Shown one piece after another: positions 32,539 to 57,813 of a stretch of DNA of 64,000 nt (its first letter is position 1; every line of letters starts with the position of its first letter). The notes under the pieces are model-generated. The model saw only the letters and a list, made by a program, of their open reading frames with translations, was not told the origin of the DNA and ran no database searches. Origin of the DNA: Terriglobales bacterium (GTDB lineage: Bacteria > Acidobacteriota > Terriglobia > Terriglobales > Acidobacteriaceae); assembly GCA_035937135.1 (NCBI GenBank), contig DASYVL010000055.1:507-64506 (forward strand), in the 5' to 3' direction. A program made the position numbers and the translations under genes.

Positions 32539-33126
32539 ATGGCAATGGAAGTGAGGGTGGGCGGTCCGGCCCCCGAGTTTGTCTACATCACTGCTTCCGG
32601 CGAGCAGAAGCGTCTCTCCGCTCTCTGGGCGGGGCGGCCGGCACTGGTGCTGTGGCTGCGGCACTTCGGTTGACAGTTCTACGCCGAGATACTCGCGCAG
32701 TTGCGCGAGAAGCAAAGCGAGTTCGAGAAGCGGCGAGTCGCCCTGGCCTGCGTGGTGCAGGGCACGGCGGCGGAAGCAGCGGTCTTCTGCGGCCGGCATG
32801 GGGTGGAGGCGCTCTGCATCCCTGATCCCGAGCGCGAGAGCTACCGCGCCTTGGGCCTGGGCCGCGCCTCGTGGCGGGAGATCCTGTTCGCCTCCGCGGA
32901 CCTGAAGCGTCGCCGCGCCGAAGCCAAGCAGGCCGGATGCAGCAACAAGCTCGAGGGCGCGCGCCAGAAGCACAGCGACATCCTGCAGCTCTCCGGCGCG
33001 GCGCTGGTGGCGGCGGGTGGCACCGTCCTATGGCTGCACCGCTCGCGCCACACCGGCGACTTGCCGTCGGCGGAGGAGCTTCTGGGGATTGTTGGGAAGT
33101 TTCTACCCTCGGCGCCGGTTGCCTAA
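32539..33126 (+). CDS. Peroxiredoxin-like (AhpC/TSA_2, PRXL2-type) thioredoxin-fold protein with in-frame TGA at 32671-32673. This is a candidate selenoprotein (195 aa with U45).
   Basis: AAGGAG lies 5 nt before ATG 32539. Forty-four sense codons, MAMEVRVGGPAPEFVYITASGEQKRLSALWAGRPALVLWLRHFG, are followed by TGA. The same frame then continues as QFYAEILAQLREKQSEF... into track ORF 32701..33126. The TGA aligns with the redox Cys of the R-x-x-G-C-x-x-C motif. Confidence 0.6.
32692..32709 (+). promoter_or_regulatory. Candidate bacterial SECIS hairpin
   Basis: CUCGCGC-AGUU-GCGCGAG is a perfect 7-bp stem with a 4-nt loop containing G. It starts 18 nt after UGA 32671-32673. Confidence 0.5.
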
Positions 33127-49595: not shown

Positions 49596-50504
49596 CTAGC
49601 CGACGAACTCCACCTTGGCCGGGTATGGGATGATTCCGGCGCGGAAGCCCATGTCCAGTAGGCGCCGCACCGCCTCGCGACCCTCCTCGCCGTAATCCAG
49701 CGTGCGCTCGTTGACGTACATGCTCACGAACTTGTTGGCCAGTTGCGGGTCGAGGTCGCGGGCGAACTGCATGGCGTAGTCCAGCGCTTCCTCGCGGTGG
49801 TCGAGGGCGTACTGGATGCTGGCTTTCAGCGCGGTTGAGACCTGCGCCACGGTCTCCGCCCCCAGATCGCGCCGGATGGCGTTGCCGCCCAGCGGCAGCG
49901 GCAGGCCGGTGGTGTCCCGCCACCACTTGCCCAGGTCCACCAGCTTGTGCAGCCCGAACTTGTCGAAGTTCACCTGGCCCTCGTGGATGATGAGCCCAGC
50001 CTCGAATTTTCCCTCCAGCACCTGCGGGATGATCTGGTCGAAAGGGACGACCTCGGTCTCGCTGTGGGGCGCGAAGAGCTGCAGCACCAGATACGCGGTG
50101 GTCAGCTTGCCCGGGATCGCGATCTTCTTGTCCCGAACTTCCTCCATGGTGTGCACGCGCGCTCCCACGATCATGGGACCGTAGCCGTCGCCCACGCTGC
50201 CGCCGCTCGAGAGCAGCGCGTACTTTTCCTGCAGGTAGGGGTAGGCGTGGAAGCTGATGGCGGTTACGTCGTACATGCCCTTGCGGGCCTGCTGGTTCAG
50301 GGTCTCGATGTCGCACAGCGTGTGTTTGAAGGTCAGGCCGGGGAAGCGCAGCTTGTTGGTGGCCAGAGCGTAGAACATGAATGCATCGTCGGCGTCCGGG
50401 CTGTGGGCCACGGAGATCTCCTGCGCGCCGGCAGCGCCCGCGGGGGGCGCTGCGAGCTCTTCGTGGCGAGCGCTCTTCTTGGGCCGTTTGGTAGGGGGAG
50501 ACAT
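49596..50504 (-). CDS. mqnD: MqnA/MqnD-fold menaquinone biosynthesis protein, most like 1,4-dihydroxy-6-naphthoate synthase
   Basis: ISVAHSPDADDAFMFYAL...DIETLN...DVTAISFHAYP...GPMIV matches the periplasmic-binding-protein-like MqnD pattern. The assignment within the family is tentative. Confidence 0.6.
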   Translation of the reverse strand: MSPPTKRPKKSARHEELAAPPAGAAGAQEISVAHSPDADDAFMFYALATNKLRFPGLTFKHTLCDIETLNQQARKGMYDVTAISFHAYPYLQEKYALLSSGGSVGDGYGPMIVGARVHTMEEVRDKKIAIPGKLTTAYLVLQLFAPHSETEVVPFDQIIPQVLEGKFEAGLIIHEGQVNFDKFGLHKLVDLGKWWRDTTGLPLPLGGNAIRRDLGAETVAQVSTALKASIQYALDHREEALDYAMQFARDLDPQLANKFVSMYVNERTLDYGEEGREAVRRLLDMGFRAGIIPYPAKVEFVG

Positions 50505-53215: not shown

Positions 53216-53668
53216 CTATTGCAGCGCTTTATCCAGGATGGCGGAGATCTTCGATTCCTCTACTTCGCTGGCCAGGCTGTAGCGGGTCTTGCCGTTCTTG
53301 TCCAGCACCACCACGTGGGGGATGAAGCCTTCGTAGTACTTCTCGACCAGCTTCTGCTGGTCCTTGGAGCGCTTCTTGTCCAGGTCGATGATGACGAACT
53401 GCACCCGGCCTTTGTACTTCTCGTACAAGCTGACGGAGCGGCGAGCCTGCCGCTTGGAGTTGAATCAACCCTCGCCCACCATGAGGATGTAGTTGGGCTT
53501 GCCGGCCACAGGGCCGTCCTCCATCTGGTCGCCGGTGATGAGCGGGCCGTCCTCGCTGTCGCTCGAGTAATCGAGCTTGGGATTGAGCTTCAGGTTCTCG
53601 GCGGCGTTACTTCTTGCCGCAAGCGCCAGGCTCGCGAGCGCCAGCGCCAGCATGAGATTTCTCTTCAC
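53216..53668 (-). CDS. Exported thioredoxin-like protein with in-frame TGA (53467-53465) at the first Cys of the CxxC position. This is a candidate selenoprotein (150 aa with U68).
   Basis: AAGGAGGAG lies 6 nt before GTG 53668. The signal peptide is MKRNLMLALALASLALAARSNA. ...KPNYILMVGEG is followed by TGA, and the same frame continues as FNSKRQARRSVSLYEKYKGRVQFVIIDLDKK... This joins track ORFs 53465..53668 and 53216..53428. The layout matches the thioredoxin pattern hydrophobic strand-W-C-x-x-C-K ... KV.FV.VDVD ... IP..V.LD..G. Confidence 0.6.
53437..53454 (-). promoter_or_regulatory. Candidate bacterial SECIS hairpin
   Basis: On the minus strand, UGA-UUCAACUCCA-AGCGGC-AGGCUC-GCCGCU is present. 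The 6-bp stem and 6-nt loop with GG start 10 nt after the UGA. Confidence 0.5.
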
Positions 53669-54287
53669 CGAACTCCTCCTTCAGCTTGAGATCGAATCCG
53701 TCCTGCTCGACCTGCGCCCGCTCCGTGCGATAGAGGCCGGCAGCCTGCTTCAGCGTCTCCGCGAAACCGGGCTTGTCGCCGGTCGCCTTCTCCGGGAAGT
53801 AGGTGCCTCCAAGATACAGCTTGCCGCAGGGCGTGAGGAAGCCGGTCAGCGGGATGCCGGCGGGAAAATTCTTCAGCGCGTGCGCCCGCTCCAGCTTCGC
53901 CGTCAGCCGGGGCCGCGCGTCGTAGTCGAGCTTGACCGCCACGAAGTTGGCGTTGATGTAGTCGGCGATCTCCGGTCGGGTATAGCTTTCGCGGTCCATG
54001 CGGTCGCAGGTCGGGCACCAGGTCGCGCCCACGTCCAGCAGGATGGGCCGGTCGAGTTGCCGAGCCCGGCGAAAGGCCTCCGCGCCCCACGGATACCAAT
54101 CCACCGGCTGACTCGCCGCCCGCTTCAGGTACGGCGAACTCTGCCCGCGCAGATGATTTCCCGGCTGCGACGACCCGGCAAACACCAGCGCCGACGCCAG
54201 CAACAGCCCTCCGAGAATCCCCAGCCGCCGGCCGCGCACACCACTCTCCCCGCCATGAGATGGACGAAGAAGGAAAAAGTTACGCAT
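53607..54287 (-). CDS. Thioredoxin-domain protein of the DUF255 (YyaL N-terminal / SPATA20-like) type
   Basis: SSPYLKRAASQPVDWYPWGAEAFRRARQLDRPILLDVGATWCPTCDRMDRESY...NANFVAVKLDYDARP matches the family. Its 3' end overlaps the next gene by about 60 nt. The start is uncertain. Confidence 0.75.
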   Translation of the reverse strand: MRNFFLLRPSHGGESGVRGRRLGILGGLLLASALVFAGSSQPGNHLRGQSSPYLKRAASQPVDWYPWGAEAFRRARQLDRPILLDVGATWCPTCDRMDRESYTRPEIADYINANFVAVKLDYDARPRLTAKLERAHALKNFPAGIPLTGFLTPCGKLYLGGTYFPEKATGDKPGFAETLKQAAGLYRTERAQVEQDGFDLKLKEEFGEEKSHAGAGAREPGACGKK

Positions 54288-56077: not shown

Positions 56078-56770
56078 ATGACTCCTGACCTTCTCCACTC
56101 CGCCCGCCGCTCCCGCGGCTGGACGCAGAAGCGCGCGGCCCGCCAACTAGGGGTCACGCAGGCCTACCTTTCTATGCTGGAGCGTGGGCGCAGAGTCCCG
56201 CCTCCGGCGCTGGCGACGCGCCTGGCCGAGGTTTATTCCCTCTCCCCGGCCTCGCTTCCCCTGCCCGCCGGAGACTGGCAACCGCCGCCTGCGGGAGACC
56301 GGAAAGTCGCTGCGGAGTTAGGGCGGCTGGGCTATCCCGGCTTGGCCGCGCGGCGTCGCGGCGAGCAGAAGAATCCCGCCGAAGTCCTGCTGGCGGCCCT
56401 GGCGCTCGGGGACGTCAACCGGCGGCTGCTCCAGGCGCTGCCCTGGCTGTTGCTTCACTACCCGGAGATGGACACGGCCTGGCTCCTCGACCGCGCCAAG
56501 CGCCTCGACCTGCAAAACCGCATGGGCTTCATTGTGACCCTGGCGCGCGAGGTTCGCGAGGCCCGAGGCGAGGTGGTCCCGTCCAACCTCGCCGGCCTGG
56601 AGGCGGCGCTTGACCGCAGCAGGCTGGCGCGCTTCGGAACACTCTGCCAGTCTTCGATGTCTGAGGAAGAAGGCCGCACCCTGTACCAGGAGCGGTCGGA
56701 GACGGCCCGCCGCTGGAACCTGCTGACTGACCTCAAAGCGGAAGAGCTGCCCTACGCGGCTGGTGGCTAG
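56078..56770 (+). CDS. XRE-family helix-turn-helix regulator with an uncharacterised C-terminal domain
   Basis: ARRSRGWTQKRAARQLGVTQAYLSMLERGRRVP is a classic HTH_3. The start is ATG 56078, or GTG 56060 as in the track. Confidence 0.7.
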   Translation: MTPDLLHSARRSRGWTQKRAARQLGVTQAYLSMLERGRRVPPPALATRLAEVYSLSPASLPLPAGDWQPPPAGDRKVAAELGRLGYPGLAARRRGEQKNPAEVLLAALALGDVNRRLLQALPWLLLHYPEMDTAWLLDRAKRLDLQNRMGFIVTLAREVREARGEVVPSNLAGLEAALDRSRLARFGTLCQSSMSEEEGRTLYQERSETARRWNLLTDLKAEELPYAAGG

Positions 56771-57813
56771 TTGAGGAAGAAGCGGCGGTAGAGGGTATCG
56801 CGCTGGGCGGGGCGGAAGCCGGCGTCGCGGATGATGCGCCGCAGCTCCTCTTCGGTGGTGCAGTTGGAAGTGCCGGCGGCCTTGACCACGTTCTCCTCCA
56901 GCATCACCGAGCCCACGTCGTTGCCGCCGAAGCGCAGGCCGAGCTGGCAGACCTTCAGCCCCTGGGTGACCCAGCTCGACTGCACGTTCTCGATGTTGGT
57001 GAGGAAGAGGCGCGAGATGGCGAGGTTCTTCAGGTACTCGACCGAGGTGGCCTCCTCCCAGCCGCGCCCGCCCAGCGCCGTGTTCCCGGGCTGGAAGGTC
57101 CAGGGGATGAAGGCGGTGAAGCCGCCCGTTTCCTCCTGCAGGTCGTAGACGTACTGGAAGTGGTTCACGCGGTGGCGCAGCTCCTCGCCGCATCCGAACA
57201 TCATGGTGGCGGTGGTGCGCATGCCGAGCTTGTGCGCGGTGCGGTGGACGTTCAGCCAGTCTTCGGTGAGGCACTTGAGGCGGGCCACCTTGTAGCGCAC
57301 CTCGTCGTCCAGGATCTCGGCGCCGCCGCCGGGGATGGAATCCAGGCCGGCGTCGCGCAGGCGCACGATGGTGTCGCGGATGGAGATGCCCTCGAGGCCG
57401 GCGAAGTGAATGATCTCCGAGGCCGAGAAGCAGTGCAGGTGCACCTGGGGGAAGCGCTGCTTGATGCCCCGCAGCAGGTCTTCATACCACTTGAACGGCA
57501 GGTCGGGATTCAACCCGCCCTGCATCAGGATCCCCGTTCCGCCCAGCTCCACCGTCTCGCGGACCTTGTCGTAGATGGTCTCGAAGTTAAGCACGTACCC
57601 GGCAGCGCGGCCCGGGCCCTTCACTGGCGCGTAGAAGGCGCAGAAGGTGCAGTACTCGGTGCATAGGTTGGTGTAGTTGATGTTGCGGTCGATGATGTAG
57701 GTGACCACGCCCTCCGGATGCAGCCGCTTGCGGACGGCGTCGGCTTCCATCCCGATGCCGACGAGGTCATCGGAGTGGTAGAGGTCGAGGGCCTGGGCTT
57801 TGGTCAGGGACAT
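56767..57813 (-). CDS. mqnC: Radical-SAM futalosine-pathway enzyme of the MqnC/MqnE family, most likely cyclic dehypoxanthinyl futalosine synthase
   Basis: DRNINYTNLCTEYCTFCAF contains the CxxxCxxC motif. GGTGILMQGGLNP, DSIPGGGAEIL and MMFGCGEE...ETGGFTAFIPWTFQPGNT are present. The choice of MqnC over MqnE is not certain. Confidence 0.7.
   Translation of the reverse strand: MSLTKAQALDLYHSDDLVGIGMEADAVRKRLHPEGVVTYIIDRNINYTNLCTEYCTFCAFYAPVKGPGRAAGYVLNFETIYDKVRETVELGGTGILMQGGLNPDLPFKWYEDLLRGIKQRFPQVHLHCFSASEIIHFAGLEGISIRDTIVRLRDAGLDSIPGGGAEILDDEVRYKVARLKCLTEDWLNVHRTAHKLGMRTTATMMFGCGEELRHRVNHFQYVYDLQEETGGFTAFIPWTFQPGNTALGGRGWEEATSVEYLKNLAISRLFLTNIENVQSSWVTQGLKVCQLGLRFGGNDVGSVMLEENVVKAAGTSNCTTEEELRRIIRDAGFRPAQRDTLYRRFFLN

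Follow-up and report, generated by a model that had tools for sequence, protein, structure and literature searches.

The closest described system to the protein treated here is the thiol-disulfide isomerase-like selenoprotein (Thioredoxin_8 / cd02966 TlpA-like), which carries selenocysteine (Sec, U) in a UxxC motif and has been predicted from marine metagenomes (PMC9312934, PMC13188914). In the selenoprotein inventories of 2022 and 2026, the latter comprising 119 families, the motifs of TlpA-like and thioredoxin-like selenoproteins are confined to UxxC, UGC, CxU and the like, and the UxxS entries are rhodanese, ArsC and AhpC-TSA_2. We analysed a stretch of 64,000 nucleotides from a Terriglobales bacterium (assembly GCA_035937135.1, contig DASYVL010000055.1, positions 507 to 64,506; in the following called the window), whose minus strand contains at 53216..53668 a gene interrupted by an in-frame TGA codon. 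To judge from the sequences compared, this gene is very probably intact and codes for an exported thioredoxin-fold selenoprotein with a UxxS motif, the TGA being a Sec codon served by a small hairpin. We favour this reading because the UGA is paired with the Cys of the family, because the part downstream of the UGA has a ratio of nonsynonymous to synonymous substitution rates (dN/dS) of 0.16, and because the hairpin is constrained specifically in the TGA forms. The mechanism is standard bacterial Sec recoding and not a new one.

Compared with the marine thiol-disulfide isomerase-like selenoprotein, the protein has in common the exported TlpA/ResA-type thioredoxin fold and the Sec in first position of a CxxC-type motif, with the U/C columns aligned, and in both the in-frame UGA is followed by a downstream hairpin. 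It differs in its UxxS instead of UxxC motif, in its occurrence in soil Terriglobia instead of marine organisms and in a conserved N-terminal extension (ENLRLN..DYSSDS.DGPLITGD). With an hhalign probability of 74% and 20% identity the relationship is remote, and the protein does not belong to that family. For the families 'Thiol:disulfide interchange protein' (Thioredoxin_2) and 'Redoxin family protein' the hhalign probabilities are 2% and 0.1%, respectively, and it is a member of neither. With the AhpC-TSA_2/SelL-related UxxS family it shares the thioredoxin superfamily, the single Sec, a Ser or other non-Cys residue at the resolving position, a hairpin of the bacterial selenocysteine insertion sequence (bSECIS) type and the presence in the same genome; that family, however, is peroxiredoxin-like (PF13911), is without an evident signal peptide and already figures among the listed selenoprotein families. 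None of the strings UFNSK, UYNSK and NSKRQARR occurs in the known families of the deep-Sep reference set. The family was found neither in the 2022 and 2026 inventories nor among the NCBIfam models, a comparison outside which the 111 families of BSepDB lay.

Reading frame, active site and protein family

The gene reads on the minus strand from a GTG at 53668-53666 to a TAG at 53218-53216, comprising 150 codons, and the TGA at 53467-53465 (codon 68) is its sole interruption. The two mechanically called open reading frames (ORFs), 53465..53668 (67 aa, ending ...MVGEG) and 53216..53428 (TTG start), are in the same frame and are separated by this TGA plus the 12 codons FNSKRQARRSVS. A putative Shine–Dalgarno sequence, AAGGAGGAG, can be read directly at 53673..53681 (minus strand), and the end of its GGAGG core is situated 6 nt ahead of the GTG. 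In these points the sequence agrees with the original prediction made from the window, which had described one 150-codon gene split by a TGA and preceded by a strong Shine–Dalgarno sequence 6 nt before the GTG.

The N-terminal stretch MKRNLMLALALASLALAARSNA (53603..53668, minus strand) shows the features of a signal peptide: its n-region is basic, its core hydrophobic and its residues at -3 and -1 small, and cleavage is predicted before AENL. All aligned homologues have an equivalent N-terminus followed by a conserved (A/G)(E/D)NL. Translation would start at GTG 53668, the UGA at codon 68 would be decoded as Sec and not as stop, and translation would proceed to the TAG at 53216; the signal peptide would direct the product to the periplasm, with a mature form of about 128 residues.

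The putative Sec-UGA codon (53465..53467, minus strand) is the first of the active-site motif U-F-N-S (UxxS; 53456..53467, minus strand), in which the resolving Cys of CxxC is replaced by a Ser. Throughout the family alignment N70 and S71 do not vary, and apart from the Sec-codon position the mature protein, as translated from the joined frame, contains no Cys. I116 and P117 of the invariant I-P-H are likewise invariant. Pro117 (53318..53320, minus strand) is at the cis-Pro loop position of the thioredoxin fold and is aligned by hhalign with the LPH of a TlpA-like selenoprotein; it would adopt the cis form.

A search with the joined protein yielded 3075 homologues. Those listed are about 150 aa long, originate from soil and peat metagenomes and from metagenome-assembled genomes (MAGs) of Acidobacteria, and are named either 'hypothetical protein' or 'thioredoxin family protein'. 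The genome locus nearest to the window gene (L003) is 78% identical. The TGA column is occupied by Cys in at least 90% of the aligned sequences, within the motif G-E-G-C-F/Y-N-S-K-R-Q, and among the 120 homologues listed 116 have Cys and four have 'W' at this position. In the two 'W' entries checked, P0001 and P0079, the DNA has TGA there and has been translated under genetic code 4. Both are Joint Genome Institute (JGI) metagenome gene calls (742-1212 of L001 and 463-1095 of L002), and the remaining two, P0049 and P0100, are probably of the same kind; the call on L002 also runs past a genuine TGA stop and thereby acquires a spurious tail of 60 residues.

In the family profile the TGA column is aligned with the first Cys of the WCxxC motif in PDB entry 5um7 and in ResA (4nmu), and the invariant Ser falls on the second Cys of both. 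The UGA had been proposed to stand on the N-terminal nucleophilic Cys, and it is at exactly this column that the Cys homologues have their Cys. A structure model (AlphaFold2, AF2) was available for a Cys homologue with 67% identity and not for the window protein itself. It has a predicted local distance difference test score (pLDDT) of 88 and a predicted template modelling score (pTM) of 0.81, with low confidence for residues 1-20, and displays a thioredoxin fold. Cys65 is located at the N-terminus of helix 1 (helix 66-82) and I-P-H just before strand 3 (115-119). Foldseek retrieved thioredoxins, TrxP and ResA at E values of about 1e-6; these are generic thioredoxins, and no specialised structural relative indicating a function was among them. 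In the selenoprotein, Sec would be placed at the N-terminus of helix 1 as a replacement of the nucleophilic Cys of CxxC, with Ser replacing the resolving Cys.

The Pfam matches, Thioredoxin_8 (PF13905) with 22.6 bits and Thioredoxin_2 with 16.9 bits, are both below the gathering score of 27, and the best NCBIfam match, NF038096 thylak_slr1796, reaches 35.1 bits against a cutoff of 140; no NCBIfam selenoprotein model was matched by the protein. We therefore regard the proteins as a distinct family within the thioredoxin fold. The alignment with NF038096, a cyanobacterial thioredoxin-like photosystem I accumulation factor, extends over residues 66-148 and includes the active-site column, but the protein is not a member of this family, and the host here is not photosynthetic. 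The predicted fold, taken from the Cys homologue, is that of thioredoxin, whereas the CxxC dithiol is absent from the family, which has U/C-F/Y-N-S with an invariant Ser.

With the periplasmic CxxC thioredoxins TlpA, ResA, TrxP and DsbH the family shares the fold, the predicted export route and the place of the active residue (the N-terminus of helix 1), and its gene is often found next to a DsbH-like gene. In contrast to them, a third of the species here use Sec in place of Cys, and the lack of a resolving Cys precludes an intramolecular dithiol-disulfide cycle. Since the single nucleophile is combined with a Ser at the resolving position, the reaction would involve an intermolecular selenenylsulfide or a selenenic acid intermediate which is resolved by an external thiol. 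CxxS thioredoxin-fold proteins such as ERp44 and yeast Eug1 act via mixed disulfides. They resemble the present family in the single nucleophile and the Ser at the resolving position, implying covalent mixed intermediates, but are proteins of the eukaryotic endoplasmic reticulum without detectable sequence relationship and without known Sec forms.

Recurrent TGA codon and downstream hairpin

From a scan of one genome per GTDB species 80 loci were obtained, whose titles nearly all name Terriglobia or Acidobacteriota MAGs; the motif could be located in 76 of them. The codon at the Cys column is TGA in 25, TGT in 28 and TGC in 23 of these species loci. Metagenomes were scanned with the fully degenerate back-translation of G-E-[G/A]-TGA-[F/Y]-N-S-K-R-Q, a pattern that leaves the synonymous choice in the 5' arm of the hairpin open and does not touch the loop and the 3' arm. 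At least 120 contigs were found, at least 118 of them TGA forms. The original prediction had named the codon in orthologues as a check, and in 25 of the 76 loci and in these contigs the orthologues carry the same TGA and not unrelated lesions.

Downstream of the TGA the reading frames of the TGA-form orthologues are intact, and dN/dS is 0.160 in the TGA forms and 0.157 in the Cys forms, at a saturated dS of about 1.7. Upstream of the TGA it is 0.13 in the TGA forms and equal to that of the Cys forms. As the downstream part evolves with the same dN/dS in both forms, the comparison shows, at the level of sequence, that it is translated in the TGA forms as well. In a neighbour-joining tree the TGA forms are paraphyletic over a broad region, which encloses several Cys clades and adjoins a large all-Cys clade; Sec and Cys have therefore been exchanged several times.

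Three loci or pairs of loci deserve mention in their own right. The MAG DASZAI01 contains two paralogous copies, both with TGA and the full hairpin, and the MAG CAWINY01 contains two Cys copies (L007 and L011, and L057 and L064, respectively). One TGA form (L070, DATMNZ010000198.1) is labelled 'Candidatus Saccharimonadales bacterium', every other locus being from Acidobacteriota, and is probably a mis-binned contig.

The putative selenocysteine insertion sequence (SECIS) is a hairpin of 18 nt at 53437..53454 on the minus strand, consisting of the 5' arm AGCGGC (53454-53449), the loop AGGCUC (53448-53443) and the 3' arm GCCGCU (53442-53437). It has a 6-bp stem and a 6-nt loop with G at loop positions 2-3, and it starts 10 nt after the UGA, the place and sequence given in the original prediction. 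The UGA-to-loop distance is 16 nt. The hairpin is the minimum free energy (MFE) structure of the segment, with -10.8 to -11.8 kcal/mol. The stem is closed by pairing of A 53454 with the U of the Ser78 codon UCC (53435..53437, minus strand).

According to the bSECIS model, the loop has 3-9 nt with a G in its first two positions, the stem has 4-16 bp, the typical loop is N1-G-[G|U]-N-N2 with N1 and N2 pairing, the UGA-loop distance is 16-37 nt and the MFE is at or below -7.5 kcal/mol (PMC13188914). The hairpin lies within all four published constraints, and its loop A-G-G-C-U-C fits with N1=A and N2=U. Like the bSECISearch consensus it is a hairpin within the coding sequence, situated just 3' of the UGA; it differs from the consensus in that its spacing is at the bottom of the allowed range and its size is among the smallest possible. 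The minimal SECIS of E. coli fdhF has an 11-nt spacing and a bulged U. The present stem, starting 10 nt after the UGA, is near this spacing but has neither a bulged nucleotide nor a lower stem, and binding by SelB is only putative. Rfam models at the gathering score gave no match in the whole window, and a permissive Rfam scan of 53350-53520 gave only chance-level snoRNA-like matches and no bacterial SECIS family.

To compare the hairpin between the two forms, 28 TGA-form and 51 Cys-form sequences were used. The stretch AAGCGGCAGGCUCGCCGCUCC is almost invariant in the TGA forms. The entropy of third codon positions between +5 and +32 is 0-0.75 bits in the TGA forms against 0.67-1.6 bits in the Cys forms, and over the hairpin itself (+14 to +32) it drops to 0-0.22 bits in the TGA forms; in the flanks both sets are alike at most positions (about 0.2-1.8 bits). 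Correspondingly, dS of codons +1 to +10 is 0.24 in the TGA forms and 0.99 in the Cys forms, with values of 1.3-1.7 in the flanks. The suppression of synonymous change is confined to the hairpin stretch and to the TGA forms. Because the flanks of the same sequences are saturated, the frozen stretch is not explained by recent common ancestry.

All six base pairs are formed in 27 of the 28 TGA forms and in none of the 51 Cys forms, and the local MFE is -10.8 kcal/mol in the former and -4.7 kcal/mol in the latter. Over the 28 TGA forms 99.4% of the cells are paired, compared with 17-65% in controls in which the partner was slid. Compensatory synonymous double changes preserve two of the pairs, G-C being replaced by A-U in one genome (L017) and by C-G in another (L041); one-sided changes inside the stem do not occur in the 28 sequences, and the loop is invariant. 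The full hairpin is present in 114 of the 118 metagenome TGA forms, where the two compensatory variants recur 3 and 3-4 times. The comparisons thus support a function of the hairpin as SECIS, as the original prediction of a SECIS-like element had suggested. It would recruit SelB-GTP-Sec-tRNA(Sec) to the ribosome.

The hairpin also coincides with a difference in the protein. At position +10 Ser is found in 27 of the 28 TGA forms and Thr (ACN) in 49 of the 51 Cys forms; the one Sec form with Thr at +10 (L056) has lost the closing pair. The RNA element thus appears to dictate an amino acid, Ser (UCC) versus Thr. Four Cys forms that are sister to this Sec form (L023, L025, L034 and L048) have kept the loop AGGCTC and the core GCCGC of the 3' arm with only 4 of 6 pairs. 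These may be decaying 'fossil' SECIS elements after replacement of Sec by Cys, which is suggestive; we dropped the claim as such remnants are not separable from codon bias on K-R-Q-A-R-R.

Selenocysteine and its alternatives

Several points weigh against a Sec codon served by a SECIS. The 60-nt segment has a z-score of -1.35 versus shuffles, so that in this one sequence the hairpin does not stand out from chance, and it is from the comparative data that its significance derives. The invariant K-R-Q-A-R-R, encoded in GC-rich codons, by itself accounts in most Cys homologues for 3-5 of the 6 pairs, and in one homologue for 2. The Mann–Whitney comparison of the hairpin between TGA and Cys forms ignores phylogeny. 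Since the element is almost invariant, covariation is thin and comprises two pairs, each changed in 1 of the 28 genome sequences. The assigned role in turn relies only on the fold, the motif and a synteny shared by part of the loci (20-25 of 76). Finally, neither the 64-kb window nor 1.47 Mb of related loci yielded a gene for selA, selB, selD or tRNA-Sec. Motifs of the SelB G1 box and signatures of SelD and SelA were looked for in the window without success, and the ten large ORFs searched against NCBIfam include no sel genes (they match UvrB, acyl-CoA ligase, RarA-like ATPase, GcvT-like protein, methyl-accepting chemotaxis protein and others). A tblastn search of the window and the loci with approximate probe sequences of E. 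coli SelA, SelB and SelD gave no match.

The Sec reading is on the other hand supported by a second gene with an in-frame TGA in the same window and by the documented use of Sec in Acidobacteria. The second gene (32539..33126, plus strand) is related to AhpC-TSA_2 / SelL and has its TGA at 32671-32673 in the context LWLRHFG-U-QFYAEIL; the published selenoprotein representative of the AhpC-TSA_2/SelL-related family likewise reads ...RHFGU.... It matches NF040769 SelL_rel_redox with 111 bits (cutoff 120) and PF13911 AhpC-TSA_2 with an E value of 5.7e-14, and its TGA is followed by a bSECIS-type hairpin of 7 bp with the loop AGUU and a UGA-to-loop distance of 25 nt. Judged by these matches it probably belongs to a known selenoprotein family. 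The earlier claim that two thioredoxin-fold genes of the window combine a TGA with a hairpin holds for this gene too. At the position of its family's UxxS/C motif the gene has a Tyr. Regarding the phylum, four selenoproteins were counted in Acidobacteria by Zhang et al. (2006), and in deep-Sep the cultured Acidobacteriaceae member Occallatibacter riparius is a Sec user with AhpD-like, deiodinase-like and FdhA selenoproteins.

A genome-wide reassignment of TGA was considered and rejected: TGA is the ordinary stop of many window genes with full-length family matches, and 6 of the 28 TGA-form genes also terminate in TGA at their normal C-terminus, without conserved read-on. The meaning of UGA is context-dependent and not reassigned.

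Among the alternatives, recoding independent of SelB fares best but is nevertheless improbable. Here a near-cognate or suppressor tRNA would insert Trp, Cys, Gly or Arg at the UGA and the hairpin would merely stimulate read-through, which would suit both the very small size of the hairpin and the lack of Sec machinery in the DNA searched. Such a tRNA is, however, difficult to reconcile with a UGA that ends other genes and even six of these genes. Moreover, the UGA is paired specifically with the redox-active Cys, the classic signature of a selenoprotein, the hairpin fits a SelB-type bSECIS including the N1-G-G-N-N2 loop and the 16-nt spacing, a known selenoprotein family has a member in the window and Terriglobia are documented Sec users.

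A little less probable still is a regulated truncation, in which the UGA mostly terminates translation to give a secreted peptide of 67 residues and the full-length protein is made only with selenium, the site serving as a selenium-sensing switch. In well-studied bacteria Sec insertion competes with termination, and the N-terminal 45 mature residues, which contain the ENLRLN..DYSSDS.DGPLITGD extension, are highly conserved. The N-terminal part is, however, equally conserved in the Cys forms, which cannot truncate, and in the TGA forms the downstream part is under full purifying selection. Truncation of this kind is compatible with the Sec reading, as a side effect and not as an alternative.

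That the gene is a decaying pseudogene, in which a nonsense mutation turned TGT or TGC into TGA, is very improbable, even though a single base change suffices for this conversion. The same TGA is found in 25 species genomes and at least 118 contigs whose synonymous sites are saturated (dS 1.3-1.7), the frame is intact, and the RNA constraint is specific to the TGA forms. A downstream dN/dS of 0.16 at saturated dS, the same as in the Cys forms, excludes decay and effectively refutes this explanation. Accidents of this sort may nevertheless be present in the data: two of the 118 metagenome TGA forms (within L083-L202) have downstream codons like those of Cys forms, a loop AGGCGC or AAGCGC and a Thr codon, and lack the hairpin. 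These two may be Cys forms with a real nonsense mutation or with a read error, and they put the background of accidental TGA at this codon at roughly 2%. A sequencing or assembly error hiding a true TGC, TGT or TGG, which the original prediction had named as a way in which it could fail, is ruled out by the recurrence of the identical codon in many genomes and contigs, in independent assemblies of many projects, and by its occurrence together with a variant of the hairpin and a Ser codon which are missing from the Cys forms.

Genomic context and biological meaning

Directly upstream of the selenoprotein gene lies, as first noted in the original prediction, a gene for a Cys-type DUF255/DsbH-like thioredoxin protein with a WCPTC motif (53607..54287, minus strand; PF03190, E value 6.5e-44, and a weak DsbH match). 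Provided that translation does begin at GTG 53668, the 3' end of the DUF255 gene and the selenoprotein gene overlap by 62 nt (53607-53668); the tail of the DUF255 protein (…GEEKSHAGAGAREPGACGKK) may be non-conserved read-on. The neighbour is predicted to be membrane-anchored or exported and is a candidate redox partner.

A DUF255/DsbH-like WCxxC gene is found directly upstream in 20 of the 76 loci (8 Sec, 12 Cys forms). In about 25 loci a pair of genes for an extracytoplasmic function (ECF) sigma factor and a zf-HC2 anti-sigma factor lies upstream of the DUF255/DsbH-like gene, and in about 15 loci a gene with a molybdopterin oxidoreductase domain, a domain family which includes MsrP/YedY, is situated about 3 kb upstream. 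The order cytochrome b561, ECF sigma-70 plus zf-HC2, DUF255/DsbH-like gene and selenoprotein-family gene recurs (3130-6390 of L037 and about 25 other loci) and suggests a stress-regulated redox module of the envelope. The window is without the sigma/anti-sigma pair and has a GT2 glycosyltransferase gene upstream instead.

Two menaquinone genes flank the locus in the window, of the VitK2_biosynth/MqnA type and of the radical-SAM CofH/MqnC type, at 49596-50504 and 56767-57813 (both minus strand). BioY and SnoaL-like genes lie between them, and the order is kept in the closest relatives, L003, L041 and L047.

Our best guess for the role of the selenoprotein, drawn from its fold, motif and neighbours, is a defence against thiol or oxidative stress in the envelope. 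The DsbH-like WCxxC protein would then be its partner and likely reductant, sometimes under control of the ECF sigma/anti-sigma pair.

Somewhat better than even, in our estimate, are the chances of a wider interpretation, according to which the proteins constitute an uncatalogued family of exported UxxS thioredoxin-fold proteins with Sec in about one third of the family-bearing Terriglobia species and repeated switching between Sec and Cys, and with a near-minimal SECIS, 18 nt long and at the 16-nt spacing limit, that dictates Ser (UCC) instead of Thr at +10. The family would then join the approximately 119 known prokaryotic selenoprotein families as a common periplasmic member from a dominant soil phylum. 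The 28 genome and 118 metagenome sequences, together with the matched Cys controls, form a clean natural experiment, from which the requirements of a minimal bacterial SECIS, its constraints on the encoded peptide and the interconversion of Sec and Cys forms can be read.

Annotation is affected in that gene callers cut the gene into two ORFs or, as in some JGI metagenome records, read the TGA as Trp, so that hundreds of database entries are too short or carry a wrong catalytic residue. For the organisms, the finding bears on the dependence of soil bacteria on selenium. If the interpretation is true, common soil Acidobacteria would routinely use selenium in the cell envelope, possibly in a module for oxidative stress controlled by an ECF sigma factor, which would conflict with the generalisation that selenoproteins are seldom retained in aerobic bacteria.

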